In this document: one piece after another, positions 1-17,167 of the stretch
How the letters are laid out: each line of letters starts with the position of its first letter
Numbering within the stretch: position 1 is the first letter of the stretch
DNA from: Nanobdellota archaeon
Lineage (GTDB): Archaea; Nanobdellota; Nanobdellia; Woesearchaeales; JAHWHD01
Reading direction: 5' to 3'
Length of the DNA stretch: 17,167 bases
NCBI GenBank assembly: GCA_034722435.1
Contig: JAYENX010000013.1
Coordinates: forward strand, 1 to 17,167
Program-made: the position numbers and the translations under genes
Notes under the pieces: generated by a model
The model's input: only the letters and a program-made list of their open reading frames with translations
Told to the model about the DNA's origin: nothing
The model's database searches: none

Positions 1-1
1 T

Positions 2-2299
2 ATGTTAGTTGATGGTCAGGGTAATTTTGGTTCAATTGATGGGGATTCACCTGCTGCAATGAGATATACTGAGGCCAGGTTAGCAAAAACTGCAGAAGAA
101 CTTCTTGATGATATTAAAAAAGAAACTGTAGATTTCATTCCTAATTTTGATGCTTCATTAAACGAACCTTCAGTTTTACCGGGGAAATTACCTAACCTTT
201 TGATAAACGGTTCTTCAGGTATTGCTGTTGGAATGGCAACAAATATCCCTCCTCACAATCTTCACGAAGTTATTGATGGCGCTATTTGTTTAATCGAAAA
301 CCCTGAATGTACAATTCCTGATTTAATGGCTCATATTAAAGGTCCCGATTTTCCTACTGGTGGCATTATAACTGGTAGAACGGGTATATTGAGCGCTTAT
401 TCAACTGGTCGCGGTAAAGTTATAGTTAAGGCAAAGGCCGAAATTGAAGAATATAATAAAAAGCAAAGAATAATTATTACAGAAATTCCTTATATGGTTA
501 ATAAATCTGTTCTTATTAAACAGATTGCAGATTTGGTTAGAAACAAAAAGATTGTAGGAATTTCCGATATACGTGACGAATCCGATAGGGAAGGTATGAG
601 GATAGTAATAGAACTTAGACAATCTGCAAATTCTGATATAATCTTAAACCAGTTATATAAACATTCAAGACTCCGAACAAGCTTTGGAATAATCATGCTG
701 TCCTTAGTTGATAGAACTCCTCATGTTCTTAACTTAAAACAGATGCTTGAGTATTATGTTAAACATAGACAAGAGGTTGTTAGACGAAGAACTCAGTTTG
801 ATTTGACTAAAGCTGAAAAACGTCAGCACATTATTGAAGGTTTAATAATTGCTCTTAACAATATTGATCCTGCTATTAAAATGATTAAAGAATCTTCTTC
901 TGTTAGTCAGGCAAAGGATTCATTAATGTCTTCTTTTAGTTTAACGGTTGTTCAGGCTCAAGCAATTTTAGATATGAAACTTCAGAAACTTACTAGTCTT
1001 GAACAAGATAAAATTCGAGATGAACATAAAGAACTAGAAAAATGGATTGAAGAGTTAAAATCTATCTTGGAATCTGAACCTAAAATTCTAGATATTATAA
1101 AATCTGAACTCGTAACTCTTAAAGATAAATTTGGTGATACACGAAGAACTCAAATAATTGATGGCGGAGATGAAAGTATTGAAATTGAAGACCTGATTGA
1201 GGAGGAGGAAATGGTTGTAACCATTACTCATTCCGGGTACATTAAAAGGGTCCACCTTAGCGAGTATAAACAACAAAAACGTGGCGGGAAAGGAATTATA
1301 GCTACTTCAACTAGGGAAGAAGATTTTGTAGAACTTCTCTTTACAGCATCTACTCATTCGTATATGCTTTTCTTTACAAATCTTGGGAAAATTTATTGGC
1401 TTAAAGTTTATAATGTTCCTCTCGGTAGACGTTCAGCATTAGGTAAAGCTATAGTCAATCTCTTAAACTTATCAAAAGATGAAAAAATATCAGCGGTTAT
1501 ACCTGTTCGAAATTTCGAGCCAGGCAAGTATCTTATGATTGCAACTAAGAAAGGTATTGTCAAGAAAACTCCTCTCGAAGAATATTCTCGACCTAGAAAG
1601 GGAGGGATTATTGCAATCACTCTCGACCCTGGAAACTCCTTGATTAATGTAATTCTCACTTCGGGAGATGATCAAATAATTCTAGCAACTGAAAACGGAA
1701 TGGCTGTTCGTTTTTCAGAGAAAGGTATTAGATCTATTGGTAGGAGCGGTAAAGGTGTAAGGGGAATTTCTTTGAAAACTGGCGACGCTGTAGTTGGAAT
1801 GGTAAAAGCAGAAGACAATCAAAATCTTTTAACTATTACAGAGAACGGGTATGGTAAACGTACTCGCGTTACTGATTATAGACTCATCTCTAGAGGTGGT
1901 GTAGGGGTAAGAAACATAATTTGTTCAGAACGTAATGGTAAGGTTGTAACTATACGTTCTGTGAAAGATTCTGTAGAGGTTATGTTCATTTCCCAGAATG
2001 GAATTGTAATTCGAATTCCTGCTAAAGGTATCTCCATTATTGGGAGAAATACTCAGGGCTTAAGATTAATGCGTCTTAATCCAGGGGATAAAGTTGTTGC
2101 AGCTGCCAAGATTATTGATAATGGAACTGATGATGCTGATGACACTGATGATTTGAATTCTGAAAGTGTAACCGAAGAAAATACTGCTAGTAATAATACT
2201 GAAGAAAATACTGTTATTGATAATACTGATGACAATGGTGGTGAGGAAGTATTGGAGAATGAAGAATCTGAAAATGAAAAGTCTAACGATAACATATGA
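2..2299 (+). CDS. gyrA: DNA gyrase subunit A (5'-truncated by window edge)
   Basis: Catalytic PAAMRYTE (Tyr codon 65-67), LPNLLINGSSGIAVGMATNIPPHN, IRDESDREG, GyrA box QKRGGKG (1274-1294), repeated beta-pinwheel blades (RGGKG, KGGII, RSGKGVRGI, RGGVGVRNI, RNTQGLRLM), acidic C-terminal tail. The GyrA box argues for GyrA rather than ParC. Confidence 0.97.
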   Translation: MLVDGQGNFGSIDGDSPAAMRYTEARLAKTAEELLDDIKKETVDFIPNFDASLNEPSVLPGKLPNLLINGSSGIAVGMATNIPPHNLHEVIDGAICLIENPECTIPDLMAHIKGPDFPTGGIITGRTGILSAYSTGRGKVIVKAKAEIEEYNKKQRIIITEIPYMVNKSVLIKQIADLVRNKKIVGISDIRDESDREGMRIVIELRQSANSDIILNQLYKHSRLRTSFGIIMLSLVDRTPHVLNLKQMLEYYVKHRQEVVRRRTQFDLTKAEKRQHIIEGLIIALNNIDPAIKMIKESSSVSQAKDSLMSSFSLTVVQAQAILDMKLQKLTSLEQDKIRDEHKELEKWIEELKSILESEPKILDIIKSELVTLKDKFGDTRRTQIIDGGDESIEIEDLIEEEEMVVTITHSGYIKRVHLSEYKQQKRGGKGIIATSTREEDFVELLFTASTHSYMLFFTNLGKIYWLKVYNVPLGRRSALGKAIVNLLNLSKDEKISAVIPVRNFEPGKYLMIATKKGIVKKTPLEEYSRPRKGGIIAITLDPGNSLINVILTSGDDQIILATENGMAVRFSEKGIRSIGRSGKGVRGISLKTGDAVVGMVKAEDNQNLLTITENGYGKRTRVTDYRLISRGGVGVRNIICSERNGKVVTIRSVKDSVEVMFISQNGIVIRIPAKGISIIGRNTQGLRLMRLNPGDKVVAAAKIIDNGTDDADDTDDLNSESVTEENTASNNTEENTVIDNTDDNGGEEVLENEESENEKSNDNI

Positions 2300-3383
2300 A
2301 GGTCTTGAAGATTCTTGTTCAAAGGAGATTAAAGAACTTTTGAACATTTCTTCTGAAATTAGAGATTCAGTTGCGATAACTGATGTTAAATCTGAAAAAG
2401 ATATTTGTCTTTTAACTTATAAACTTCAATCTGCAAGAAAAGTTTTACAATTGTTGGATTCATTTGAATTTAAAGAAATTTCTGAAATAGAAAAATCAAT
2501 TTCTAAGATTGACCTGACTCCGTTTTTAAAAGATAAAATTTCTTTTGTTGTTAGATGTCTCAGGTTTGGAGATCACGATTTCCAAGCTGGCGATGTTGAA
2601 CGTAGTATTGGTTCAGTCATTTTTGAAAAATATAAAAACAAAGTCGACCTTGAAAATCCTGACTATATTTTCTATATCTATATTCATTCTAATTCGGTAT
2701 TTTTCGGTATAGATTATGCTGGTATAGACCTTAGTAAACGAGAATATAAAATATTTAGTCACCCTTCCGCTTTAAGAGGTCCTGTAGCTTTTTTATTGCT
2801 AAAACTTGTAGGATATGATAAAACAAAACTTCTTCTAGACCCATTCTGCGGTTCTGGAACCATACCTATAGAGGCCGCTCTTCACTCATCTGGATTATCT
2901 CATAATTTTTATAGTAAAAAGAAGTTAGCTTTCACTAAATTTATTGATTTTGACTTTGAATCTGTAGATGTGAACATAGACAAAAAATCTAAACTAACTG
3001 TTCAAGGCTTTGATCATAATCTACAATCTGTTTCTGCATCTAATAAAAATGCGAAGATTGCGGGTATAGATAAAATCATTAATTTTTCAAGAGTGGATAT
3101 AGAATGGCTTGATACTAAATATGAGAAAGAATCAGTTGACCTTATTGTAACAAACCCTCCTATGATTTCTAAGATACATCCTTCTGCGATGATTGAAAAA
3201 ATTTACAAAGAGCTATTTTACCAGCTTGAGTTTGTAATGAAAAAATCAGGAGTTATTTTATTTGTTTCAAGAAAAACAGATCTTCTTAAGAAACAAGCCG
3301 CTATTAAAGATTTCAAAATTAAAAAAGAATTAGCTATATTAATTGGTAAAGAAACTTTCAGGGTGCTAATTCTCTCAAAATAA
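2274..3383 (+). CDS. THUMP-domain RNA m2G methyltransferase, Trm14-like (tRNA G6 N2-methyltransferase)
   Basis: THUMP segment (SFVVRCLRFGDHDF...KVDLENPD), Trm14/RlmL-like LSKREYKIFSHPSAL, SAM motif LDPFCGSGTIPIEAA, NPP motif. Start placed at ATG 2274 (MKSLTITYEGLED) rather than 2217 of the ORF track, leaving a 26-nt overlap with gyrA. Confidence 0.8.
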   Translation: MKSLTITYEGLEDSCSKEIKELLNISSEIRDSVAITDVKSEKDICLLTYKLQSARKVLQLLDSFEFKEISEIEKSISKIDLTPFLKDKISFVVRCLRFGDHDFQAGDVERSIGSVIFEKYKNKVDLENPDYIFYIYIHSNSVFFGIDYAGIDLSKREYKIFSHPSALRGPVAFLLLKLVGYDKTKLLLDPFCGSGTIPIEAALHSSGLSHNFYSKKKLAFTKFIDFDFESVDVNIDKKSKLTVQGFDHNLQSVSASNKNAKIAGIDKIINFSRVDIEWLDTKYEKESVDLIVTNPPMISKIHPSAMIEKIYKELFYQLEFVMKKSGVILFVSRKTDLLKKQAAIKDFKIKKELAILIGKETFRVLILSK

Positions 3384-3385
3384 GA

Positions 3386-3401
3386 CGAAAAGCTTTATAA
3401 A
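3386..3401 (+). promoter_or_regulatory. Archaeal BRE/TATA promoter of the RNase P RNA gene
   Basis: CGAAAAG-C-TTTATAAA. The first T of the TATA box (3394) is 31 nt upstream of the P1 5' end. Confidence 0.75.
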
Positions 3402-3424
3402 CAACTTAAAACACATTATTCTTG

Positions 3425-3747
3425 GTAGGAAGGTGGTTAACTACGGAAATGTTATCTTGTGCTTAGATGTATTGGATGGCTGTCTGAGGAAAGTCCACCC
3501 ACTGTTAAACGCCACTCTTAGGAGCTCTGGAAACAGAGGGCAATGGCACAGAAAAGATACTGCCTTTAGATAATGGGAAGATGCTGAGAAGTTCCTGGTG
3601 ACAGGTTACAAGAACAGTTGACGTCTCTAAAGGTTAGTTGAAACTGCTTAATCCTGGCGAGTGCAACTTCAGTTTGGAGGCTCAGTAGAATGTTAACAAG
3701 GACCGTCCGTAAGGGGTCCTACAGAAGGTGGCTTATAACCTTCCTAC
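3425..3747 (+). ncRNA. rnpB: Archaeal RNase P RNA
   Basis: P1 GTAGGAAGGT (3425-3434) pairs with ACCTTCCTAC (3738-3747). CR-I GAGGAAAGTCC (3486-3496), CR-V ACAGAAGGTGGCTTA (3721-3735) with complementary CCACC/GGTGG for P4, P9 CTCTG-GAAA-CAGAG, ACAGAAA and TGAAAC conserved regions, P7 CGCCA/TGGCG, long P12, P19 AGGACC/GGTCCT. Followed by a T-run (3749-3753). Confidence 0.97.
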
Positions 3748-3760
3748 ATTTTTCATTTAG

Positions 3761-3772
3761 TAAATTATATAA
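3761..3772 (+). promoter_or_regulatory. Probable TATA box for the secG-nac pair
   Basis: TAAA-TTATATAA about 35 nt upstream of ATG 3800, in an AT-rich gap, so the match is not very specific. Confidence 0.45.
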
Positions 3773-3799
3773 ATTAAATCAAACTTTATACTAATTAAA

Positions 3800-3973
3800 A
3801 TGGCTAAAGATAAAATTTCAATGCCGTCATCGACGGCCGGTATCACTAGATACTTTGACGACTATCATAGCAAAATTAGCTTCAGACCAGAATATATTAT
3901 AGTTTTAGTTGTTATTGTTGTTACAATCGTAATTCTACTTAACAAGTACGGCGCAATCTGGTTCGGATTATAG
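3800..3973 (+). CDS. secG: Preprotein translocase subunit Sec61beta / SecG (57 aa, not in ORF track)
   Basis: Manual translation MAKDKISMPSSTAGITRYFDDYHSKISFRPEYIIVLVVIVVTIVILLNKYGAIWFGL. It has the archaeal Sec61beta signature AG(I/L)xRYFD followed by PExII and a single C-terminal TM helix. Confidence 0.9.
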   Translation: MAKDKISMPSSTAGITRYFDDYHSKISFRPEYIIVLVVIVVTIVILLNKYGAIWFGL

Positions 3974-3982
3974 GTGATAAAT

Positions 3983-4324
3983 TTGTTTCCTGGAATGAAT
4001 CCTAAAAAAATGCAACAAATGATGAAGAAAATGGGTATGCAACAGATTGACATACCTGCTGTAGAGGTTATCATCAAGACTGCAGATAAAGAACTTGTTA
4101 TTACTGAACCACAAGTTAGCAAAGTTAACATGATGGGTAAAGATACTTACCAAATTGTTGGTGCTGTTCATGAACGAGCAAGAACATCTGAACAGGTAGA
4201 AATTAACGACGAAGACATTAAAACAGTTGCAGAACAAGCTAATGTTTCTGAAGAAGTTGCTAAAAAGGCTATTGAAGGCGCTAAAGGTGATTTAGCTGAA
4301 GCAATACTAAATTTAACTGCTTAA
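3983..4324 (+). CDS. nac: Nascent polypeptide-associated complex protein (archaeal NAC)
   Basis: MNPKKMQQMMKKMGM, NAC beta-barrel region (EVIIKT...VSKVNMMGKDTYQIVG), C-terminal UBA (DIKTVAEQANVSEEVAKKAIEGAKGDLAEAILNL). TTG 3983 is preferred as start because Shine-Dalgarno AGGTGAT (3972-3978) lies just upstream; the ORF track uses GTG 3974. Confidence 0.93.
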   Translation: MFPGMNPKKMQQMMKKMGMQQIDIPAVEVIIKTADKELVITEPQVSKVNMMGKDTYQIVGAVHERARTSEQVEINDEDIKTVAEQANVSEEVAKKAIEGAKGDLAEAILNLTA

Positions 4325-4388
4325 AACACTAACAGAACATAAATAAAACACAAACTATATATATTTATAAACCTTAACAATATAAACC

Positions 4389-4874
4389 ATGGAGAAATAT
4401 CAGGAGGCAAGAGAGGCAGCTAAAAAATATATTAAAACTGCCGACCACATGATTTCTGTCACATATCTGCTTGTAAAAGATCCCAAGTTGTTGGTTGCCG
4501 TGATGGATAACGTGTTCCTTGCACTTACAAACTCTGTTGGAGCTATATTACTTCACGATAGACTTTTTAAAAAAATCCCTCCTTTCCATAATACTTTCGA
4601 ATCAAAGTATCGTATGTTTAGGGAAAAGTCTGCAGAGATTCATAACATTGATAAAACTTACTTGACATTCATATTAGACATTAAAGATACTATCTTACAA
4701 CACAAGAAAAGTCCTATAGAATTTTCGCGAAAAGATAGTTTTGTTATATGTTCAAAAGATTATAAATTAAAAACTTTAACTGTACCTGATATCAAAGGTT
4801 ACATAGTAAAAACAAAAACTTTTGTTGACCGGATGGTCAAGATAGTGAGCAAATACGATGGAATATTTAAATGA
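4389..4874 (+). CDS. Hypothetical protein, HEPN-like helical pattern (paralog A)
   Basis: Intact 161-aa ORF with TATATATA (4356-4363) about 33 nt upstream. It aligns without gaps to the downstream ORF. The fold call is inference from the helical pattern only. Confidence 0.6.
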   Translation: MEKYQEAREAAKKYIKTADHMISVTYLLVKDPKLLVAVMDNVFLALTNSVGAILLHDRLFKKIPPFHNTFESKYRMFREKSAEIHNIDKTYLTFILDIKDTILQHKKSPIEFSRKDSFVICSKDYKLKTLTVPDIKGYIVKTKTFVDRMVKIVSKYDGIFK

Positions 4875-5328
4875 TTCAAAAGAAGAACTGAAACGCGTAG
4901 ATCATCTTATTTACGTTAGTTTGAAATATACTAGGACTGTCGACGTAATTAGAAGTATTATTGATAGATTGATAAACGCGGCAGATTTTTTGGTTGACCA
5001 AATTCTATATACTGCAAAACAAGAAAAAAAGATTTCTGAACTTCCTAAATTACCTGGCATCAAGTGCGATAAAGTCAAAAGTTTGTATAAAGACGATAAA
5101 AAACTTGTTGGATATATTGATTATTACTTAAAACTTAGAAAGATTATGCGACTCGATTTCATTCGAAGTACTGAATATAGAAGACATGTTTATATGGGTG
5201 TAACTCTTAACGGTGAAGAGTTAAGAATTAACATTGATTTAATGGTTGAATATAATGAAATATCTAAAGATTTTTTTGAATATGTGAAAGAGATGGTCTC
5301 TGATAAATCTGAAGAATCTGACGATTAA
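4858..5328 (+). CDS. Hypothetical protein, HEPN-like helical pattern (paralog B)
   Basis: Intact 156-aa ORF overlapping paralog A by 17 nt. It shares the K-x3-K-x2-DH-x-I-x-V pattern and the C-terminal Y-x4-K-x-F-x7-VS pattern with A. Confidence 0.6.
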   Translation: MEYLNDSKEELKRVDHLIYVSLKYTRTVDVIRSIIDRLINAADFLVDQILYTAKQEKKISELPKLPGIKCDKVKSLYKDDKKLVGYIDYYLKLRKIMRLDFIRSTEYRRHVYMGVTLNGEELRINIDLMVEYNEISKDFFEYVKEMVSDKSEESDD

Positions 5329-5342
5329 AAAAAGGTTTTTTT

Positions 5343-5843
5343 ATGGCAAAGATTGACAAAAAGCTAAGGGCTAAAGGCTGGTCTGATCACGAGATAAATA
5401 AAGTTCATTCTATAATTAATACTAAAGGTGCTAAACACATAGAATTTGGTAAAGGACTTAACCGTATACTTTTCATGACTGCTCTTATTGTTATGACTTT
5501 ATGCATAATCGCAGTTTCTTTATTTTTAATACCTTTTTTGATTGTTATTAGTAATTATTTTATATATTTTATAATTGCGGCTTTAGGTATAAGTTTTGGT
5601 TTACTGTTTAATTTCATTATTCAAGATATAGAACATCTTGAGAGGAAGCATCATTGGTTTGCAGCTATTTACATGCCTGCTATATCCATTTTTGCATTAA
5701 CTGTCTCAGTCCATGCTGCTAATCGTGTTGAAGAACTTTTAGGGTATTCTCTTCGTCATAACCCTTGGACTGTTGGCGCAATATTTATCATAGTATTTAT
5801 GATGCCTTACATTATATCTTCAATAAAGAAGAAATCTTTATAA
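5343..5843 (+). CDS. Hypothetical membrane protein (about 4 TM helices)
   Basis: 166-aa ORF with a soluble N-terminus (LRAKGWSDHEI) followed by about four hydrophobic segments. It starts 14 nt after paralog B, so it is probably in the same transcript. Confidence 0.7.
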   Translation: MAKIDKKLRAKGWSDHEINKVHSIINTKGAKHIEFGKGLNRILFMTALIVMTLCIIAVSLFLIPFLIVISNYFIYFIIAALGISFGLLFNFIIQDIEHLERKHHWFAAIYMPAISIFALTVSVHAANRVEELLGYSLRHNPWTVGAIFIIVFMMPYIISSIKKKSL

Positions 5844-5844
5844 A
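5829..5844 (+). promoter_or_regulatory. BRE/TATA promoter of tRNA-His
   Basis: AAGAAATC-TTTATAAA (TATA 5837-5844, overlapping the upstream stop codon), 33 nt upstream of G-1. Confidence 0.65.
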
Positions 5845-5869
5845 AACCAGATTTTTCTAATCTTGTTAT

Positions 5870-5979
5870 GGCGGTCGTGGTGTAGCCTGGTAGCACTGGA
5901 GACTGTGGATCTCCCAGCCCGGGTTCAAATCACTGATGCTTTAAATATTAGCATCGGTCTGAAAGTCCCGGCGACCGCC
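5870..5979 (+). tRNA. tRNA-His(GUG) with encoded G-1 and a T-loop intron; CCA not encoded
   Basis: Acceptor GCGGTCG (5871-5877)/CGACCGC (5972-5978), G-1 (5870) opposite C73 (5979), D stem GTGT/GCAC, anticodon arm GGAGA-CTGTGGA-TCTCC, T stem CCGGG (5919-5923)/CCCGG (5967-5971) interrupted by a 36-nt insertion. Confidence 0.96.
5930..5965 (+). other. tRNA intron at position 59/60 with bulge-helix-bulge-like splice motif
   Basis: Central 4-bp helix TTCA (5924-5927)/TGAA (5960-5963), 3-nt bulges AAT (5928-5930) and AGT (5964-5966), intron hairpin ACTGATGCT/AGCATCGGT. Cleavage after the second bulge nucleotide restores T-loop TTCAAAT. Confidence 0.88.
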
Positions 5980-5993
5980 CTTTTAACTATAAC

Positions 5994-6008
5994 AAAAACC
6001 TTTAAATA
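5994..6008 (+). promoter_or_regulatory. BRE/TATA promoter of the rps13 operon
   Basis: AAAAACC-TTTAAATA. The same spacing as the RNase P promoter predicts a start near 6031. Confidence 0.65.
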
Positions 6009-6030
6009 CTACCTATCAACTTCAACCAAT

Positions 6031-6141
6031 ATCAAGTCTGGAGCATTCAATAAGTCTCCTGGTCTTAACAATAGATTAAGGCCGTAAGTCAAAGCTTATG
6101 ACATTATAGCTGTTCTATAATGTTTTTGAAAATTGTTAAAA
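6031..6141 (+). promoter_or_regulatory. Structured 5' leader (four adjacent hairpins) upstream of rps13
   Basis: Stems GGAG/CTCC (6040-6059), GGTCTTAA/TTAAGGCC (6061-6083), GTAAG/CTTAT (6084-6099) and perfect 9-bp ACATTATAG/CTATAATGT (6101-6123), followed by a T-run. Function is inferred. Confidence 0.55.
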
Positions 6142-6603
6142 ATGGCAGAAATAGAATTCCAACACATTGTAAGGGTAAGAAACACCGACCTTAACGGTAA
6201 CTTAAACATAGTTAATGCTCTAAGAAAAATTAGAGGCGTTTCATTTATGTTTGCTAACATGGCTTGTGTTCTTACAAATCTGGATAAATCTAAACAAACA
6301 GGTATACTTTCTGCAGACGAAATTAAGAAACTAGAAGACTTCTTTCTAGATCCTGTTAAATTTGGTGCACCAGAATGGGCTCTTAACAGAAGAAAAGATC
6401 CTTATGACGGAAAATCTTCACAATTACTTTCTACAGATATAAGATTTGTTACTGATAACGATATAAAACGTCTTAAGATGATTAAGTGTTACAGAGGTAC
6501 TAGACATATGTCAGGACTTCCTTCACGAGGTCAAAAGACTAAATCAAACTTTCGAAGACATAAGGGTAAAAGTGTTGGAGTAAAGAAGAAAAAAGGTAAA
6601 TAA
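6142..6603 (+). CDS. rps13: 30S ribosomal protein uS13
   Basis: FQHIVRVRNTDLNG, ALRKIRGV, PEWALNRRKDPYDG, IKCYRGTRHMSGLPSRGQKTKSNFR. Start set to ATG 6142. Confidence 0.96.
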   Translation: MAEIEFQHIVRVRNTDLNGNLNIVNALRKIRGVSFMFANMACVLTNLDKSKQTGILSADEIKKLEDFFLDPVKFGAPEWALNRRKDPYDGKSSQLLSTDIRFVTDNDIKRLKMIKCYRGTRHMSGLPSRGQKTKSNFRRHKGKSVGVKKKKGK

Positions 6604-6605
6604 AC

Positions 6606-7388
6606 ATGGGAGATCCAAAAAAGATTAGGAAAAAGTATAGGACACCTCAACATCCTTGGGAAGCTACAAGATTGGCAGAGGAATCAATTCTTATCAAAGG
6701 ATACGGTCTCAAAAACAAAAAAGAGATCTGGAAAGTTTCTTCTCTCATGAGAAAATACACTCATAATGCAAAAAACCTAATTACATCTCGAACAAAACAA
6801 GCAGAGGTTGAAAAATTACAATTACTTACAAAACTTCTTAAATTAGGATTATTACAAGAAGGTGCAAAGATTGAAGACGTCCTTGGCTTGGATATTAAAG
6901 ATTTTATGGAGAGAAGACTTCAAAGCGTAGTTTTTAAGAAAGGTCTGGCGCGTTCGATGAAACAGGCAAGACAATTTATTACTCATGAACATATTCTTGT
7001 TAACGGTAAAAAGATTTCAGTTCCTTCATATTTAGTTTTAAGAGATGAAGAACCTACTGTGGCTTTTATAGATTCATCTTCACTTTCAAATCCTGACCAT
7101 GCTGAAAGAAATCTTCCTGAAAAAGTTGAAGAAGTGAAACCTGAGTCAGATAAAAAAGAAAAATCTAAACCTAAGAAAACTAAAGAATCTAAAAAATCTA
7201 AAGAGAATAAAGATACTAAAAATACTGAAGATACTGAAACTAAAGAAGTAAAAGAATCTGAAGAAGAAACTAAAAAAGAAGTGAAAGAGGAAGTAAAAAC
7301 TGAATCTGTAGACGTAAAAGAAGACAAGTCTAAAGAAGAATCTGAAGTTCCTGAAGCAACTAAAGAAGAAGTTGGAGATAAAAAATAA
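6606..7388 (+). CDS. rps4: 30S ribosomal protein uS4 with long charged C-terminal extension
   Basis: [29 protein letters not shown]4 domain [33 protein letters not shown]. Confidence 0.97.
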
Positions 7389-7392
7389 TAAA

Positions 7393-7860
7393 ATGGCAGA
7401 GCAAACAAAACCTAAAAGGGATTTTAAGAAAACCACGGGTAGAGATTGGAAAAGACCTGTAAGAAAACCTTTCAATGCAAGGTGGGGAATCGCTCACATA
7501 TTTTCATCTTATAATAATACGATAATTCATATTACTGATATTACTGGTACTGAAACCATTTCAAAGGGTTCCGGTGGCATGGTTGTCAAGGCACACCGTC
7601 TTGAAGGATCGCCTACTGCAGCAATGACTGCTGCAAAAAAGGCTGCAGAGATTGCACGAGATAAAGGAATCACTGCTATTCATGTTAAAATCAAAGCTCC
7701 AGGTGGACATAACGGACCTAACAATCCAGGACCTGGTGCACAAGCAGCTGTAAGAGCTCTTTCCAGAATGGGTTTAAGAATTGGCATAATTGAAGATGTT
7801 ACCCCAATTCCGCACGATGGTTGCAGAAAGAAAGGTGGAAGGAGAGGTAGACGTGTATAA
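7393..7860 (+). CDS. rps11: 30S ribosomal protein uS11
   Basis: [57 protein letters not shown]. Start set to ATG 7393. Confidence 0.97.
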
Positions 7861-7861
7861 A

Positions 7862-8650
7862 ATGGAAATTCAATATCTCTCGAAGGATAAAGAAAAAGTT
7901 TCTTTTTTGATAAAGGACTCTACAGCAGCATTCGCTAACACATTACGAAGAACTATCGTTGACGAAGTTCCTACTATGGCAATTGAAGATGTGGAGATTA
8001 GAAAAAATAACTGCATACTTTATGACGAAATAGTCGCACACAGACTAGGATTAGTTGTATTAAAGACAGACTTAAAATCTTACAATCTTCCTTCTGAATG
8101 TAAATGTGGTGGTGAGGGTTGTGCAAGATGTCAATGCAAATTAACTTTAAAATCTAAATCTCAGATTGTTACTGCTTCAGAACTTACATCTACAGATCCT
8201 AAAATTGTTCCTGTTTACTCTGAAACTCCTATTGCTAAGTTGATTAAGGGTCAAGAGCTTGAACTTGAAGCAACTGCAGTTCTTGGTAAAGGTAAAGAAC
8301 ACGCAAAATGGTCTCCAGGTTTAGCTTTTTACAAACATCCTGTTAATATTAAAATTAATCAATCAAAGATAAAAAATAATGACGAAATTGTTGAAGCTTG
8401 TCCTCTTAACATATTTGAATCTAAAAGTGGTAAGTTAGCAATTAATGATAAAAATGTTATCAAGTGTCATCTTTGTGAAGCTTGTACTGATTTATGTCCT
8501 CAAGGTATAGAGCTTAACGCTGACCGTTCAAGTTTTATATTCACAATCGAATCTTGGGGCCAATTAAAACCTAAAGATATTATAAAAAAAGCTGTCGAAG
8601 TTTTAGATTCAAAATTCGACGAATTTACTAAGAAGGTTAAAGAACTATGA
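7862..8650 (+). CDS. rpoD: DNA-directed RNA polymerase subunit D (Rpo3) with ferredoxin-like Fe-S domain
   Basis: AFANTLRRTIVDEVPTMAIE, LYDEIVAHRLGL, CKCGGEGCARC, GKGKEHAKWSP, EACP...CHLCEACTDLCP, FIFTIESWGQLKP. Start set to ATG 7862. Confidence 0.96.
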   Translation: MEIQYLSKDKEKVSFLIKDSTAAFANTLRRTIVDEVPTMAIEDVEIRKNNCILYDEIVAHRLGLVVLKTDLKSYNLPSECKCGGEGCARCQCKLTLKSKSQIVTASELTSTDPKIVPVYSETPIAKLIKGQELELEATAVLGKGKEHAKWSPGLAFYKHPVNIKINQSKIKNNDEIVEACPLNIFESKSGKLAINDKNVIKCHLCEACTDLCPQGIELNADRSSFIFTIESWGQLKPKDIIKKAVEVLDSKFDEFTKKVKEL

Positions 8651-9009
8651 AGAGAACAGGTCCAACAAATCTAGAACTTAAGAATTTAATACTTGAACTT
8701 AAAAAGAAATCTTCAGATTCAAAAATCCTTCTTTGGAAAAGAATTGCTAGAGATCTTGAAAAACCCTCTAGACAACGAAGAAAAGCTAATTTATACAGAA
8801 TCAATAGATATACTAGAGATGACGAAATTGCTTTAGTTCCTGGAAAAGTACTTTCTTTAGGAAATATAGAGAAAAAAATCACAATCGCAGCTTTAAACTT
8901 TTCAGATCATGCAATTATTAAGATTAATGCCGCCGGTGCAAAAGCAATCACAATTAAAGAATTACTTAAACAAAATCCTGAAGGTAAAAAAGTGAGGATT
9001 ATAGGATAA
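8647..9009 (+). CDS. rpl18e: 50S ribosomal protein eL18
   Basis: TGPTN, LWKRIARDLEKPSRQRRKANLYRINR, VPGKVLSLG, AALNFS. ATGA overlap with rpoD; canonical position in the operon. Confidence 0.95.
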   Translation: MKRTGPTNLELKNLILELKKKSSDSKILLWKRIARDLEKPSRQRRKANLYRINRYTRDDEIALVPGKVLSLGNIEKKITIAALNFSDHAIIKINAAGAKAITIKELLKQNPEGKKVRIIG

Positions 9010-9010
9010 A

Positions 9011-9424
9011 ATGATAATTGACGCAACAGATTTAATAGTGGGAAGACTTGCTACAAAAGCAGCAAAAGCAGCTTTGTTAGGTGAGAAAGTAGACGTTATT
9101 AATTGTGAAAGTGCAATTCTTTCAGGAACCCGACAATCTGTTCTAGCCAAATATAGAAGAAAGAGAGAACTCGGTATTCCATTAAAAGGACCTTATTTCC
9201 CTCGACTTCCTGACAGGTTTGTTAGAAGAATTATAAGAGGTATGCTCCCTTACAAAAGGGCAAGAGGTTCTGAAGCTTTCAAAAGAGTCATGTGTCACGT
9301 TGGCGTACCTGTACAATTTAGAGATAAGAAAACAGAAACTTTTAAAGATGCTAATGTTGGAAAACTTCCTACACTTAAATATGTTAAAGTATTAGAAATA
9401 TGTAAATATCTTGGAGCAAAATGA
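9011..9424 (+). CDS. rpl13: 50S ribosomal protein uL13
   Basis: IIDATDLIVGRLA, VINCESAILSG, GPYFPRLPDRFVRRIIRGMLPYK. Confidence 0.96.
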   Translation: MIIDATDLIVGRLATKAAKAALLGEKVDVINCESAILSGTRQSVLAKYRRKRELGIPLKGPYFPRLPDRFVRRIIRGMLPYKRARGSEAFKRVMCHVGVPVQFRDKKTETFKDANVGKLPTLKYVKVLEICKYLGAK

Positions 9425-9822
9425 CAAAAATAATTCATACATCAGGAAAAAGAAAACGCGCAATAGCAAGAGCTACGCTTAAGTCCGGAACTGGTAAGGT
9501 AAAAGTTAACGGAGTTCTTCTAGACGTTTACGGTACTGAGATTACTAGGACAAAGTTAATGGAACCTTTGATTCTTGCAGATAAATACTCTTCAAAGATT
9601 GATCTCAACGTGAAAGTTATGGGAGGCGGTTTTATGTCTCAAGCAGATGCTGCCCGTCTTGCAATTGGCAGAGCATTAGTTCAATTTGCTAAGAATGATA
9701 AACTAAAGGAACTATTCCTTGAATACGATAGAAACCTTTTAGTTGCAGATACAAGACGAAAAGAAACTTGTAAACCTAACGATTCAAAAGCTCGTGCAAA
9801 ACGACAAAAATCTTACAGGTGA
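9421..9822 (+). CDS. rps9: 30S ribosomal protein uS9
   Basis: SGKRKRAIARA, VMGGGFMSQADAARLAIGRAL, YDRNLLVADTRR, ARAKRQKSYR. Confidence 0.97.
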   Translation: MTKIIHTSGKRKRAIARATLKSGTGKVKVNGVLLDVYGTEITRTKLMEPLILADKYSSKIDLNVKVMGGGFMSQADAARLAIGRALVQFAKNDKLKELFLEYDRNLLVADTRRKETCKPNDSKARAKRQKSYR

Positions 9823-9829
9823 TTAAAAA

Positions 9830-10027
9830 ATGATAATACCTATACGATGTTTCAGCTGTGGAAAACCTATCGCCCACCTCTGGGAAGAATACAAAGAACG
9901 TGTTAAGAACGGAGAAGAACCTAAAAAGGTAATGGACGAACTAGGTCTTGAAAGATATTGTTGTAGAGCTATGTTCTTGGGACATGTAGATCTTATTGAC
10001 ACAACTGGACGATTTAAGAAATTTTAA
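9830..10027 (+). CDS. rpoN: DNA-directed RNA polymerase subunit N (Rpo10)
   Basis: MIIPIRCFSCGK...LGLERYCCRAM zinc motif; Shine-Dalgarno AGGTGAT at 9817-9823. Confidence 0.97.
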   Translation: MIIPIRCFSCGKPIAHLWEEYKERVKNGEEPKKVMDELGLERYCCRAMFLGHVDLIDTTGRFKKF

Positions 10028-10044
10028 TATTTATTTGTTAATTT

Positions 10045-10092
10045 ATTTCTTTATTTTCTTACTTTTTTTCAACTTTCTTTATTTTTTCTTTC
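10045..10092 (+). terminator. Oligo-T rich archaeal terminator region after rpoN
   Basis: Several T-runs including T7 (10063-10069) and T6 (10082-10087) directly after the operon. Confidence 0.55.
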
Positions 10093-10109
10093 CTATATTG
10101 ATTTTACCA

Positions 10110-10122
10110 TAATATTTATATA
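10110..10122 (+). promoter_or_regulatory. TATA box of leuS (predicts a leaderless mRNA)
   Basis: TTTATATA at 10115-10122, with the first T 31 nt upstream of ATG 10146. Confidence 0.55.
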
Positions 10123-10145
10123 ACCAATACTTCTTTATTTTTAAA

Positions 10146-13022
10146 ATGCTCGACTTTAAAAAAATCCAAGATAAATGGCAGAAGAGATGGAAGAAAGATA
10201 ATGTTTTCCGTGTTGATGTTAAAGATTATAAAAAACCTAAATATTATATTACTACTCCTTACCCTTACATGAGCGGACTTTTACATATTGGTCATATTTT
10301 TACTTATATTTATCCTGAAGTAATGTCTCGTTTCAAGAGAATGCAAGGTAACAATGTCCTCTTTAAATGGGGATTTCATTGTACTGGTACGCCACTTGTT
10401 GCAGCTGCTAAACGTGTAGCTGAAGGTGAAGAAAAACAAATAGAAATTCTTAAACAGATGGGCATTCCTGATAAAGATATTTCTAAGTTCGAAAAACCTG
10501 AACACTGGGCAAATCATTTTTCAAAAGAAACATTGAAAGATGTAAAAGCTATGGGTTTCTCTATTGATGAACGTTACACTTTCATAACAACTTCATTAAA
10601 CCCGCCTTATGATTCATTTATCAGGTGGCAATTTAATAAGTTAAAGGATAAAGGTTATGTTAAGAAAGGAAAACATCCTGTTGTATGGTGTCCAAAGGAT
10701 AATGCACCTGTTGGAGACCATGCTAGAGCAGAAGGCGAAGGTGAGACTCCTCAGCAGTTCTGTCTTTTCAAGTTTAAACTTGATGATGATAGATTTGTAG
10801 TTACAGCAACTCTAAGACCCGACACTGCTTGGGGTATTACTAACGTTTATGCAAATCCTGAGATTGAATATGTTGAAATCGATGTTAAAGGTCAGAAATG
10901 GATAGTTGGTGAACCAATTATTGAGAAACTTAATAATCAAGATTATCATGTTAAAGTTATTGGCAAGGTTTCTGGCAAAGACTTAGTTGGCAAGAAAGTT
11001 GAAAGTTTTGGTGGTACTAAAATCTTAATTTTGCCTGCAACATTCTTAGACCCTGAATACGGTACAGGACTCGTACATTCAGTTCCTTCAGATTCTGCAG
11101 ATGACCTTATTGCATTACAAGATTTACAAAAAGATGATGATACTATAAACAAATTCGGGCTTAACATTGATGAAGTAAAAGCTATTAAACCTATTGAAAT
11201 ATTTGACACTCCTGAGATTGGTGGTAACCCTGCACAATACTTTCTGGATAAGTATAAAGTAAATTCTCAAAACCAGAGAGATATTTTAGATAAGATTAAG
11301 AAAGAACTTTACAAACTAACTTTTAATCAAGCTAAATTTAATAGTAAATATAAAAAAGGTTTTTCAAAAGACCTTTCTGGCACGATTGTTAAAGATGGCC
11401 AGGACATTATTAAGAAAGATTTACTCAAACAAGGCATTATTGAACTGTTCTACGAATTAACTGGCGAAGTTGTTTGTCGTTGCCTCACTAAATGTGTTGT
11501 TAAAATTGTTTCCGACCAATGGTTTATAGAATATAACGACCCTAAATGGAAAAAGATAACTCATAAATGTTTGGATGGAATGACAATTTATCCGGACATT
11601 GTCCGAAAACAGTTTGAATATGTTCTTGATTGGTTACATAGGTGGGCCTGTGCCAGAGAATTAGGTCTGGGAACAAAACTGCCTTGGGACGAGAATTGGG
11701 TGATTGAAAGTCTTTCAGATTCTACCTTGCAAATGGTTTATTGCACAATATCTAAATATCTTCAACACCCTAAAGATTACGGTTTTAAAGTTGATAAATT
11801 AAATGATGATTTTTTTGATTACGTTTTTATGTCTAAAGGTAAAATTGCGGATATAGAATCATCTACGGGCATACCTAAGGATATGATTGAAAAAATGAAG
11901 GGTGATTTCGAATATTGGTACCCTTTTGATTTCAGAAACTCCGCTAAAGATCTTTTACAAAATCATCTTTCCTTTTGTTTATTTATACATACCGCTTTGT
12001 TTGATAAGAAGTATTGGCCAAAAGCTTACTCTTTGAATGGCAGGGTGATGGTTGATAATCAGAAAATGTCAAAGTCTAAAGGCAATTTTTATACTACTAG
12101 GGAACTGTATGAAAAAAACTCTTCGGATGTTGTAAGGTTAGCTGCTGCGAATGCCGGTGAAGGCGTTGATGATGCTAACTACGATATGTCTTTCATGGAC
12201 ACTGCAGCTAAAAAGTTAAATGATGTGTATACGTTTGCAGCTCAGAATTATAATAAGGGTAGGAGCGATAGAAAACCTGTTGATGATTGGTTTGAATCAA
12301 TCATAAACGGCGCTGTGCTGAAAACTACTGAGTTGATGGAAAATGTTCAGTTTAAATCTGCACTTTATGTTGGCTTTTTTGAATTACAAAGAAAACTTAA
12401 ATGGTACACTAGAAGAACTAATGGAGATTATAATAAGAATTTGATAAATAAATTCATAGATGTTCAAATTAAAATACTCTCTCCATTTACTCCGCATATC
12501 TGTGAGGACATTTGGGAACTTATCAAAGGAAAAGGTTATATTGCAAATGCTGAATGGCCTAAATGCGATAAGGCGAAAATCAATATCGAATCTCAGAAAG
12601 GTGAAGAGTTGATAACTCAGGTAATGGTTGATATGCAAGCAGTCCTTAAATTAGCCAACCTTAAACAACCTAAAAAGATTACTTTGATTGTGGCTCATAA
12701 ATGGAAGTATAAGTTCATGGATACTTTACGAAAGGTTCTGGCAGATACACGCGATTTCAAACAAATTCTTGGAAAGGTTTTGTCAGGCGATTTGAAACAA
12801 TACGGTAAACATATAACTAAGTTAATTCCTAAATATGTTAAAGCAGGGTCTGTTCCTGAATCAATGACGCAAAAATTTGAATCAGATATTCTTAATGCTT
12901 CAAAAGACTTTTTTTCAAAAGAATATTACGATTCTGAAATTGTTATTGAGATCGCTGATAGATCTGAACACGTTAAAGCCAAACAATCAATGCCTGGTAA
13001 ACCGGCTATTTTGATAGAATGA
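10146..13022 (+). CDS. leuS: Leucine--tRNA ligase (archaeal/eukaryotic type)
   Basis: PYPYMSGLLHIGH (HIGH), ATLRPDT editing-domain start, GTGLVHSVPSDSADD, LPWDENWVIESLSDST, EYWYPFDFRNSAKDL, KMSKS, PFTPHICEDIW, archaeal C-terminus PGKPAILIE. Confidence 0.96.
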   Translation: MLDFKKIQDKWQKRWKKDNVFRVDVKDYKKPKYYITTPYPYMSGLLHIGHIFTYIYPEVMSRFKRMQGNNVLFKWGFHCTGTPLVAAAKRVAEGEEKQIEILKQMGIPDKDISKFEKPEHWANHFSKETLKDVKAMGFSIDERYTFITTSLNPPYDSFIRWQFNKLKDKGYVKKGKHPVVWCPKDNAPVGDHARAEGEGETPQQFCLFKFKLDDDRFVVTATLRPDTAWGITNVYANPEIEYVEIDVKGQKWIVGEPIIEKLNNQDYHVKVIGKVSGKDLVGKKVESFGGTKILILPATFLDPEYGTGLVHSVPSDSADDLIALQDLQKDDDTINKFGLNIDEVKAIKPIEIFDTPEIGGNPAQYFLDKYKVNSQNQRDILDKIKKELYKLTFNQAKFNSKYKKGFSKDLSGTIVKDGQDIIKKDLLKQGIIELFYELTGEVVCRCLTKCVVKIVSDQWFIEYNDPKWKKITHKCLDGMTIYPDIVRKQFEYVLDWLHRWACARELGLGTKLPWDENWVIESLSDSTLQMVYCTISKYLQHPKDYGFKVDKLNDDFFDYVFMSKGKIADIESSTGIPKDMIEKMKGDFEYWYPFDFRNSAKDLLQNHLSFCLFIHTALFDKKYWPKAYSLNGRVMVDNQKMSKSKGNFYTTRELYEKNSSDVVRLAAANAGEGVDDANYDMSFMDTAAKKLNDVYTFAAQNYNKGRSDRKPVDDWFESIINGAVLKTTELMENVQFKSALYVGFFELQRKLKWYTRRTNGDYNKNLINKFIDVQIKILSPFTPHICEDIWELIKGKGYIANAEWPKCDKAKINIESQKGEELITQVMVDMQAVLKLANLKQPKKITLIVAHKWKYKFMDTLRKVLADTRDFKQILGKVLSGDLKQYGKHITKLIPKYVKAGSVPESMTQKFESDILNASKDFFSKEYYDSEIVIEIADRSEHVKAKQSMPGKPAILIE

Positions 13023-13753
13023 AAAAACTCGATAAAGTTATATTATTGATGATCTTTGAATTAATTTTAGCTATAGGACTTATCAGCCTTTCAACAGTTT
13101 CAAAACTTTTGGTAGCAATATTTTTTCCTCCTGTTATTGCAGTCACACTTTTTGCATTGATGGTATCAATAGTGGACATGGATACACATCAAAGAAAAAC
13201 TGCTTATTTCGTTTTTGCACTTTTCTTAGTGGGTATTGCACTATTTTCAACAAGTATAGGTTTTCATTATGCTTCTGATGAGATAAATGAAGCTTTTTTT
13301 CCGTATAAAACAGACTTTTCTTTGGACGACATACTTTTTACAAAAGAAAGAATATATTTCTTAGACGAAATGTTTTCACATTATTTAATGATTGCAGGGG
13401 CAGTAGGTATGGTTTTAGGCATTTTTTCTTGGTGGTACTTTTTCAAGAAAAAAGCACTTCCTGGTTTTGACCCTGATAAAAAAGATTCTTTAGTGGGCAC
13501 ATTTATGCCTGTATTTTTAGGTGCCATATTAGGCGGACTTTCATCTTTTGGTTGTATAGAAGCACAATTAACTTCGTACGCATTAATTATTGCCTTAGCT
13601 GTACTTCCTCCAATATTATTAAAGTTAAGAACTGTAAAAATGGACCGTGCACACATCTCCTTTCTTTTTTTGTTTGGAATAACTACGATAGGCTCTTATC
13701 TTGGTATAATCCTTGCTTATTTGATAACTGTTAAAGCTTTTCCTAATGTATAA
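13019..13753 (+). CDS. Hypothetical polytopic membrane protein
   Basis: 244-aa ORF with about 7 hydrophobic segments and an ATGA overlap with the leuS stop. I do not confidently recognise a family. Confidence 0.7.
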   Translation: MKKLDKVILLMIFELILAIGLISLSTVSKLLVAIFFPPVIAVTLFALMVSIVDMDTHQRKTAYFVFALFLVGIALFSTSIGFHYASDEINEAFFPYKTDFSLDDILFTKERIYFLDEMFSHYLMIAGAVGMVLGIFSWWYFFKKKALPGFDPDKKDSLVGTFMPVFLGAILGGLSSFGCIEAQLTSYALIIALAVLPPILLKLRTVKMDRAHISFLFLFGITTIGSYLGIILAYLITVKAFPNV

Positions 13754-13762
13754 TATAAGAAG

Positions 13763-14037
13763 TGAGCAGGCGCGCCTCTGGTTTGACATAATCCAAAACA
13801 ACCAGTTAATCTTAATCTCTTCTCAATTCCGCAACCCTCTGAGCATCAGTATCAAAAGTTAGGGCTGCTCTGTTCCCAGCCTGACCCGGTTCCTGATAAC
13901 ACCAATCCCAAAGGACAGAATGTCATAGTCCAGACCAAGACTGATTATCTTGAAAAATACCTCGCCAAAGACTCACCCCGCCATATAGCCCAGTTGCGGT
14001 GATAGGTAGGGACTAGCTACCCGGTCGAACCTGCTCA
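13763..14037 (-). ncRNA. ffs: Archaeal SRP RNA (7S)
   Basis: On the - strand: helix 8 GGGTCAGGCTG-GGAA-CAGAGCAGCCC (SRP54-binding loop), terminal helix TGAGCAGG/CCTGCTCA, and an Alu-like 5' domain with hairpins GGGTAG/CTACCT and TCACCGC/GCGG-GGTGA whose loops (TAGTCC, GGGCTA) are complementary. Confidence 0.94.
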
Positions 14038-14058
14038 GTCCTTCCTACTAGAAGTTCA

Positions 14059-14073
14059 TTTTTAAATGTTTCT
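14059..14073 (-). promoter_or_regulatory. BRE/TATA promoter of SRP RNA
   Basis: - strand AGAAACA-TTTAAAAA, with the first T (14066) 30 nt upstream of G at 14036. Confidence 0.65.
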
Positions 14074-14083
14074 ATTGCAGGAT

Positions 14084-14098
14084 AGAAATATTTATTAA
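14084..14098 (+). promoter_or_regulatory. BRE/TATA promoter of the MBL gene, divergent from the SRP promoter
   Basis: GAAATA-TTTATTAA, with the first T (14091) 30 nt upstream of ATG 14121. Confidence 0.55.
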
Positions 14099-14120
14099 CC
14101 TTCAAATAAGGGATTCATTA

Positions 14121-14990
14121 ATGGCTTCACGCATTATCTTTCTTGGGACTGCAGGCGATCATTATGTCTATGGTAAACAGTATAAAGCATCTGGCGGCAT
14201 AGTTTTACAAATTGACGGTAACCAATTTCACATTGATCCTGGTCCTGGCGCATTAGTAAGAGCTGCACAGAATAATATAAACATGCGAGAAACTACAGCC
14301 ATCTTAGTTTCACATAATCATCTCGGACATTCTAATGATGCGAATGCACTCATAGATGCTATGACTCATTCAGGTTTGGATAAGAAAGGAATACTTATTT
14401 CTAACAAAAGTTTTATTGAAGGTAACGACGATATTAGACCTTCGTTAACCCCTTACCATAAAAATTGTGTTGAAAAAGTTATTATGTTAGAACCTGGAAA
14501 AAGAGTAGGTATAGAAAATATTGAGATAGCTGCTTTACCTGCTCAACATTTAGATGCTGACACGATTGGTTTTAAATTCTATACTCCTTATTTTGTACTT
14601 TCATATTCATCGGATACTAAATTTTTTAACGATTTATACAAAGCATATGAAGGTTCGGATATACTTATACTGAACGTTACAAATCCTGATAACGAAAAAT
14701 CCGATAAACTTAATATTGAAGATGCCATAAATTTAGTATCTAAGGTCAAACCTCGACTTGTTATTATTACACATTTCGGTATTAAACTATTAAAAAAAGA
14801 TCCTATACTTCAAGCAAGAGAGGTTCAAAGACAAACTGGTATCCAAACAATTGCTGCTAAAGATGGGATGGTTATAACTCCTGGTACTTACTCTGCAAGA
14901 TCGCAGCAAAAAACTTTGTTAGATATGAAGAGATACAAACCTGCTAATTCTGAAACTGTAAATGTAGATATTTCTGAAGAAACAATTTAA
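14121..14990 (+). CDS. MBL-fold metallo-hydrolase
   Basis: IIFLGTAG, HIDPGPG, SHNHLGH (variant of HxHxDH), AQH, YSSDT, IITHFG. Substrate unknown. Confidence 0.85.
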   Translation: MASRIIFLGTAGDHYVYGKQYKASGGIVLQIDGNQFHIDPGPGALVRAAQNNINMRETTAILVSHNHLGHSNDANALIDAMTHSGLDKKGILISNKSFIEGNDDIRPSLTPYHKNCVEKVIMLEPGKRVGIENIEIAALPAQHLDADTIGFKFYTPYFVLSYSSDTKFFNDLYKAYEGSDILILNVTNPDNEKSDKLNIEDAINLVSKVKPRLVIITHFGIKLLKKDPILQAREVQRQTGIQTIAAKDGMVITPGTYSARSQQKTLLDMKRYKPANSETVNVDISEETI

Positions 14991-14994
14991 GTTT

Positions 14995-16122: not shown

Positions 16123-16123
16123 A

Positions 16124-17029: not shown

Positions 17030-17130
17030 TTCTGCCTCTTTTAGTTGATATTACTTTATTATTGTCATATTCTTTCTATTAATAGTTATTGTCTATTTTT
17101 ACTATTATTTTATATTCTTATTTTACTATT

Positions 17131-17151
17131 TATTATTATTATTATTATTAT
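17131..17151. repeat. (TAT)7 simple repeat in AT-rich intergenic DNA
   Basis: TATTATTATTATTATTATTAT read directly from the sequence. Confidence 0.8.
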
Positions 17152-17167
17152 ATTTTTATTATTTTAC

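Follow-up and report, generated by a model that had tools for sequence, protein, structure and literature searches.

Small stand-alone HEPN proteins of prokaryotes are nearly always interpreted as toxins or defence effectors. The described representatives closest in structure to the genes considered here are the single-domain proteins of the AF_0298/UPF0332 type (AF_0298, PDB entry 2hsb; TT1696, 1ufb; ST0689, 1wol) and the HepT component of the HepT-MntA systems (5yep, 7bxo, 8xdj), in which HepT acts as a dimer and is paired with an AMPylating nucleotidyltransferase of the MNT type. Makarova et al. 2019 (PMC6393860) reported a DPANN-wide MNT-HEPN fusion in a housekeeping context as well as a DPANN-specific cluster, cls.004340 (NEQ484), annotated as 'alpha helical protein in house-keeping context'. 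Lastly, a preprint of 22 October 2026 (bioRxiv 10.64898/2026.10.19.760177, section 30) introduced an 'archaeal dual HEPN system', composed of ParA and two previously uncharacterised HEPN genes and confined to Nanobdellati; its authors describe the HEPN domains as catalytically dead and quick to diverge, and their proposal is an immune sensor of RNA that sets off the polymerisation of ParA. The current study is concerned with two overlapping genes, termed A and B, of a Nanobdellota archaeon of the order Woesearchaeales. They are located in a stretch of 17,167 nucleotides (assembly GCA_034722435.1, contig JAYENX010000013.1, positions 1 to 17,167 of the forward strand), which in its full length is referred to as the window.

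Matched by architecture and taxon rather than by accession, the A/B family is very likely the dual HEPN system of the preprint; it may also be cls.004340, the two being compared by description only. The dual HEPN system and A/B have in common the tandem HEPN-fold genes, the restriction to DPANN/Nanobdellati and the loss of the canonical catalytic residues, and in relatives of the window a ParA/MinD gene adjoins the pair (28 of 40 loci, sampled around B from genomes of different families, with open reading frames (ORFs) labelled by profiles). The window differs in that it has no ParA/MinD, none being detected in the genome, and in that a membrane-protein gene directly follows B. The locus represents a variant, lacking ParA and linked to a membrane protein, of a family described only recently. 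A first-pass annotation, made by a model from the letters of the DNA, had put the pair forward as the best candidate in the window for an undescribed system, a claim now overtaken by the preprint (bioRxiv 10.64898/2026.10.19.760177); it had picked up neither the downstream membrane-protein gene nor the MinD-type ATPase of the relatives. Based on the evidence set out below, we consider it on balance probable that A and B are ancient HEPN-fold paralogs, with B a vertically inherited core gene, which serve as a ligand-binding housekeeping factor other than a ribonuclease (RNase). The genes are arranged as follows.

4389-4874, plus strand: ORF A, 161 residues, the faster-evolving paralog of predicted HEPN fold
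4858-5328, plus strand: ORF B, 156 residues, the near-universal, slowly evolving paralog of predicted HEPN fold
4858-4874, plus strand: 17-nucleotide overlap of A and B, from the ATG of B at 4858 to the TGA of A at 4872-4874

The overlap is exactly of the length first described, and it points to translational coupling of the two genes. To judge from their sequences, A and B are true, ancient paralogs. Aligned without gaps at an offset of four residues, they show 15 identities over 62 positions (BLOSUM62 sum 47), which comprise all 14 N-terminal identities listed in the first-pass annotation and, additionally, E6/E2; this was reached in none of 5000 shuffles on the fixed diagonal, and the score in none of 500 on any diagonal. 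Taken by itself, a BLASTP comparison of A with B falls short of significance (E 0.54). Comparison by hhalign of the two profiles, each built from an alignment of 60 orthologues (A1 and A2), aligns 152 columns in the same register as the offset of four, with a probability of 96.8% and an E of 2.4e-10. The C-terminal matches proposed earlier, EFSR/EYRR and that in the last helix, are recovered in the joint A/B alignment. Homologues number 123 for A and 2519 for B, every one annotated as a hypothetical protein of Woesearchaeota or Nanoarchaeota. A tree of 70 sequences splits A and B into two clades by a branch with 100% SH-aLRT, each clade includes members of the window's order as well as of further orders within the class, and the sequences of one taxonomic family mostly cluster; the tree thus argues for an old duplication, mainly vertical descent and several losses of A.

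Membership of both proteins in HEPN is accepted at the level of the predicted fold. The AlphaFold2 models (A, pLDDT 91 and pTM 0.84; B, pLDDT 90 and pTM 0.84) present the same order of elements, with four helices, a three-stranded β-element and a long last helix. In Foldseek searches against the PDB, AF_0298 (2hsb) is the top match for A (E 2.9e-3, probability 1.0, target TM-score 0.84) as well as for B, and the rows after it are HepT, ST0689, TM0613, the sacsin HEPN and TT1696. A search with VIA-align over 48,161 chains superimposes A on 2hsb with a Z of 15.4 and a root-mean-square deviation of 2.3 Å (125/126 residues) and B with a Z of 13.3 and 2.6 Å (118 residues), although for helical bundles a Z near 13 can come from the common arrangement; the next 15-20 rows belong mostly to the HEPN superfamily (HepT, sacsin, Roquin, LsoA, Csm6 and KNTase-type C-terminal domains). 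The HEPN-like helix pattern noticed in the first reading is hence borne out at the fold level, with nearly all top matches being HEPN, and the predicted structures of A and B share one fold.

Sequence comparison places the two proteins at the margin of the known families. No Pfam HEPN-clan match was obtained for A or B at E <= 1; HEPN_AbiU2 is matched by 2 of the 60 A members (E 4.5e-4). The A1 alignment compared by hhalign with 26 local PF05168 proteins from related genomes gives a weak match, colinear over 120 columns (E 4.5e-4, probability 33%), and B aligns with PF05168 proteins over the last helix only. PDB sequence and profile searches with A and B returned no HEPN match, scans of A, B and the membrane protein against Pfam, NCBIfam and PADLOC returned no credible family and no defence model, and only Woesearchaeota/Nanobdellota clusters without names were matched in the ESM Atlas. 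The AF_0298-type proteins, the best structural matches, resemble A and B in size and in being single-domain, at a sequence identity of 8-14% and with their Pfam family PF05168 matching neither. Unlike them, A and B contain the extra three-stranded β-element and a longer loop between helices 2 and 3; they lack an R-x4-6-H/Y motif and an MNT neighbour, and they are core rather than patchy in distribution. HepT of the HepT-MntA systems shares the HEPN fold with A and B (Z 10-11); A and B differ from it by the absence of the RX4HXY motif, of an AMPylating MNT partner and of signs of mobility, and by their housekeeping position.

The distribution of B is that of a core gene. Among sampled genomes of the phylum at least 90% complete, the B profile matches 286 of 301 (284 of 299 without the unpublished genomes G243 and G244, which enter this count only), usually with one match each. 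Carriers identified by a pattern scan comprise at least 583 GTDB species genomes, and an exhaustive profile search retrieved 461 representatives of 50%-identity clusters at E <= 0.001 among 1.84 billion. The titles of the carriers are Woesearchaeota, Nanoarchaeota or Nanoarchaeia, apart from generic 'archaeon' and evidently mislabelled records. Many metagenome-assembled genomes named 'uncultured Methanosarcinales archaeon' (L085, L088, L090 and others) and one 'Candidatus Aminicenantes bacterium' (L150) carry B; their labels or binning look wrong. Median identities on matched genome pairs are 0.44 for B, 0.46 for S4 and 0.49 for S13, followed by 0.34 each for the THUMP methyltransferase and MinD and 0.30 each for A and the membrane protein. 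The slow divergence of B is comparable to that of the ribosomal proteins S4 and S13 and, at least for this paralog, contradicts the rapid divergence attributed to the dual HEPN system; A is the faster of the two. Canonical Pfam HEPN proteins of relatives are distributed differently from B: PF05168 occurs in 21 of 61 genomes, often in several copies (up to 9), and no PF05168 match was found in the present genome.

The usual gene order across the 40 loci is Sec61beta-NAC-[A]-B-[MinD]-[membrane protein]...S13-S4-S11, with the elements in brackets being variable. NAC is directly upstream in 34 loci, A is present in 29 (28 of them as A-B), and a MinD/ParA ATPase directly follows B in 28. The membrane protein is present in about 20 loci, all from the window's taxonomic order; it directly follows B or MinD in 19 (MinD in 13) and is on the opposite strand in one more. 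By combination, 19 loci have A, B and MinD, 9 have A and B without MinD, 9 have B and MinD, 2 have B alone and 1 has an A-like gene alone. Most related loci carrying both A and B show an overlap or a gap of few nucleotides between them, and the start of MinD/ParA often overlaps the stop of B. The present genome represents the MinD-less form, A-B-membrane protein: an operon-type MinD orthologue was not detected in it at 94.5% completeness, the best match being partial (E 8.8e-8). The profiling of synteny and phyletic distribution that had been suggested at the outset thus supports B as near-universal and A-B as occurring together in 28 of the 40 loci, but it also reveals A as often lost. The obligate heterodimer envisaged in the first-pass annotation fails as a general rule, given that A is missing from 11 loci and that no second copy (A) was found elsewhere in five B-only genomes searched whole, where the A profile weakly matches the B gene itself. 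The locus with the A-like copy alone (L041, genome G092) has no B; the copy, a long branch within the A clade, is followed by a 135-residue ORF without family and then by a VTT-domain membrane protein.

Residue conservation provides the basis for a functional proposal. Conserved in A are A18, D19, H20, T25, D31, K33, N41, R58, H105, S108, E111, F112, R114, C121 and Y125; the alignment of 60 B sequences has 18 invariant columns, with E10, R13, H16, V20-S-L-K-Y-T-R-T27, D29, R37, E106, R109, H110, V111 and D127 invariant. In the joint alignment, A and B have in common D19-H20/D15-H16 on helix 1, T25/S21, E111-F-x-R114/E106-Y-x-R109 and K143..F145/K137..F139. The shared DH motif of the first reading is well founded, D19 and H20 of A being conserved at 100% and 92% and D15 and H16 of B at 92% and 100%. 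The canonical Rx4-6H motif, which in HEPN stands at the start of the last core helix, was found in neither A nor B. B has a contiguous R108-R109-H110, modelled within and beside β-strands and not at a helix N-terminus, and A has R114-K115 at the aligned position; a spacing of R103-x6-H110 is present in B, with R103 conserved in only 47%. Members of one B subfamily (P0245, P0254 and P0272; 277-395 residues) carry long, low-complexity, Lys/Pro-rich C-terminal tails with KKKVSKKK repeats, which are a hint of nucleic-acid binding. The window's own B ends in an acidic tail, SDKSEESDD. Among fused or longer forms of B, only these lysine-rich tails and P0241, an apparent assembly or frameshift chimera, were found, and no informative domain fusion.

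In the mechanism that we propose, A and B would each form a bundle of HEPN-type helices with the inserted three-stranded β-element, and they would be transcribed together with the small membrane protein from a promoter before A. B is a core gene of Woesearchaeota/Nanoarchaeia-type DPANN archaea, and A an old duplicate that many lineages retained while others lost it. From what other HEPN domains do, we infer dimers, of A/B where A exists and of B/B elsewhere. The Rx4-6H site would be replaced in B by an invariant polar cluster (E10, R13, H16, K23-Y-T-R-T27, D29, R37, E106, R109, H110 and D127), both paralogs presenting a D-H...E-aromatic-x-R core, and the resulting surface may bind a ligand that carries phosphate, RNA or a nucleotide being the likeliest. 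The richness of the invariant B cluster in R, K, H and T, together with the lysine-rich tails, appears to favour such binding by the dimer over HEPN cleavage, so that A/B would most likely be a non-catalytic or atypically catalytic dimeric binder. The MinD/ParA ATPase after B in most relatives and the membrane protein in the window's order suggest a membrane-associated housekeeping complex. The RNA-processing or translation-linked role put forward in the first-pass annotation is a conjecture. Several observations weigh against the proposal. Adjacency to NAC and ribosomal genes alone shows no functional link, since synteny extends over this entire stretch throughout the class. Some lineages do without A, some without MinD and some without the membrane protein, which makes the make-up of any complex ambiguous; the sequences of A and of the membrane protein change rather quickly, with a median identity of 0.30; and the preprint assigns this family to immunity (bioRxiv 10.64898/2026.10.19.760177).

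The surroundings of the pair in the window comprise the following features.

2-2299: GyrA
2217-3383: THUMP methyltransferase
3425-3747, plus strand: archaeal RNase P RNA, 130.5 bits
3800-3973: Sec61beta
3974-4324: NAC
4363-4373, plus strand: promoter-like AT-rich motif ATTTATAAACC, beginning 26 nucleotides 5' of the ATG of A
5343-5843, plus strand: membrane protein, 166 residues, 4-5 predicted transmembrane segments, starting 14 nucleotides past B
about 5872-5979, plus strand: intron-containing tRNA-His, anticodon GTG
13764-14036, minus strand: signal recognition particle (SRP) RNA, 136.9 bits

Genes 3' of the tRNA-His include S13, S4, S11, RpoD, L18e, L13, S9, a class I aminoacyl-tRNA synthetase and the SRP RNA, among others. 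The pair accordingly sits in a housekeeping block between nac and tRNA/ribosomal genes, as had been read from the sequence before, with the tRNA now identified as an intron-containing tRNA-His, and the region GyrA-THUMP-RNase P RNA-Sec61beta-NAC...S13 is syntenic across the class. No mobile or defence-like genes were seen in the window. The ATTTATAAACC motif suggests a putative transcription start for a separate, almost leaderless unit headed by A; near-copies are found 22-31 nucleotides 5' of the RNase P RNA (a TTTATAAACA box) and 21-30 nucleotides 5' of the ATG at 14121, and the count of motifs of this type is not above chance (6 matches against 3.9 expected). From the motif before A, the 17-nucleotide A/B overlap and the 14-nucleotide spacing between B and the membrane-protein gene, the three genes A, B and membrane protein probably constitute one operon. 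Among sequencing runs, the sequence was found only in a brine metagenome, probably the source of the DNA, with no RNA run listed. The membrane protein has no Pfam or NCBIfam family; its conserved elements are an N-terminal KGW, then GN, LIPF, FG..FN, DIE, HH, NP and PY. Polar residues in or near the transmembrane segments (GN, DIE, HH, NP, PY), combined with the predicted cytosolic KGW, suggest a site for binding or catalysis and thus more than an anchoring role.

Other observations pertain to the neighbours themselves. A gap of the size of the RNase P RNA recurs between the THUMP and Sec61beta genes of related loci. A role of A and B as new protein subunits of RNase P was considered and dropped, the RNase P RNA being ~640 nucleotides 5' of A, beyond Sec61beta and NAC, in a region syntenic as a whole. 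The tRNA-His, with a TTTATAAA box ~30 nucleotides upstream, has a genome-encoded G-1 that pairs with C73 and an insert of ~35 nucleotides in the T-arm region, probably a non-canonical intron. It was not called by ARAGORN, and Rfam scores only its 5' part (5878-5935) at 21.4 bits, under the gathering score; the intron is the reason for recovery at a relaxed Rfam threshold only. The S4 protein (6606-7388, plus strand) has a C-terminal extension of ~90 residues, rich in Lys, Glu and Ser and without counterpart in many related loci, giving a length of 260 residues compared to 172-237 in those orthologues. For an ORF of 244 residues (13019-13753, plus strand) that comes directly after the gene of the class I aminoacyl-tRNA synthetase, no Pfam family matches at E <= 1e-5.

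Regarding the alternatives to a non-RNase housekeeping factor, A/B could be an active non-canonical RNase, in which R108-R109-H110 of B would form a remodelled site with R13 and H16 of helix 1, completed or regulated by A and directed at a housekeeping RNA such as tRNA, rRNA or the RNase P or SRP RNA. We regard this as unlikely, even though the invariant Arg/His residues are positioned ~70% along the chain, where HEPN enzymes carry their catalytic motif, and the stretch 'KKRHV' at the equivalent position of a local PF05168 protein (L058) is similar. The Rx4-6H spacing is absent, the R103-x6-H110 present in B involves a poorly conserved arginine, and the Arg/His stretch is modelled in or next to β-strands. 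The neighbourhood of RNase P RNA, intron-containing tRNA and ribosomal genes would fit an RNase, an argument weakened by the synteny of the whole region. Near-universal conservation would suit an enzyme; the preprint judges the domains inactive (bioRxiv 10.64898/2026.10.19.760177).

The interpretation given in that preprint, with a dead and fast-evolving HEPN pair sensing the RNA of selfish elements and triggering ParA/MinD polymerisation, is in our assessment quite improbable for A/B. Several findings agree with an immune function: relatives share the architecture (A-B-MinD in 19 of the 40 loci, B-MinD in 28), the Rx4-6H motif is absent, A has the higher evolutionary rate of the two paralogs, and the presence of A, MinD and the membrane protein varies. 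The behaviour of B does not: it is near-universal (286 of 301 genomes), mostly with a single match, in a fixed housekeeping position; its tree groups by taxonomic family, as expected of vertical descent; and its rate of divergence does not exceed that of S4 or S13 and is below that of the tRNA methyltransferase. The HEPN genes are kept without an adjoining MinD in the present genome and in 10 other loci, with no MinD orthologue detected genome-wide here, and there are no PADLOC matches. The true Pfam HEPN genes of the same genomes, by comparison, show the patchy, multi-copy pattern expected of defence or toxin-antitoxin genes.

A role of A and B as MinD adaptors or regulators, functional analogues of MinE and MinC that link the ATPase to the membrane protein and have no nucleic-acid role, seems very doubtful. 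Relatives of the window do carry a MinD/ParA deviant Walker-A ATPase in the same operon; in 28 of the 40 loci it comes directly after B, whose stop often overlaps the start of the ATPase gene, and in 13 the membrane protein comes after MinD. The present genome, in contrast, has no detectable MinD orthologue, yet A, B and the membrane protein are intact, and ten other loci are without an adjacent MinD. Neither A nor B shows homology to MinC or MinE; any regulatory link is speculative. The invariant surface of B, rich in R, K, H and T, is more suggestive of binding to nucleic acids or nucleotides, as are the lysine-rich tails of one subfamily. The reading of A/B as the remnant of an MNT-HEPN (MntA-HepT-like) toxin-antitoxin module with its nucleotidyltransferase partner encoded elsewhere is close to refuted, in agreement with the first-pass annotation, for although the HEPN fold resembles HepT structures and about nine NTP_transf_2 (MNT-type) genes occur elsewhere in the genome (contigs C50, C20, C15, C25, C45 and C18; loci L045-L052), no nucleotidyltransferase gene is present in the window, none is labelled beside the pair in the 40 loci, neither the RX4HXY motif nor a match to the Pfam HEPN/HepT models was found, and B is near-universal, single-copy and syntenic while canonical Pfam HEPN is patchy.

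Lastly, our study has importance in showing a HEPN-fold protein, as predicted for B, with the behaviour of a core gene across an archaeal lineage, conserved like a ribosomal protein and located among genes of translation and secretion. Going further than the non-RNase housekeeping factor, we put forward, as a tentative and possible extension only, that B (with A where present) is a lineage-defining, probably essential factor in which an RNase-dead HEPN scaffold has been re-used as a membrane-linked RNA- or nucleotide-binding module with a MinD-type ATPase. If true, this would provide a counter-example to the view of small prokaryotic HEPN proteins as conflict or defence genes. The A/B proteins of the relatives would also become the first set of candidate partners of archaeal MinD, an ATPase not known to have equivalents of MinC or MinE. 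The practical value is limited for now. The DPANN genomes are reduced and otherwise consist largely of well-known core functions; the housekeeping reading of A/B, if right, would correct a fresh immune interpretation and point to an essential DPANN process beyond these functions.

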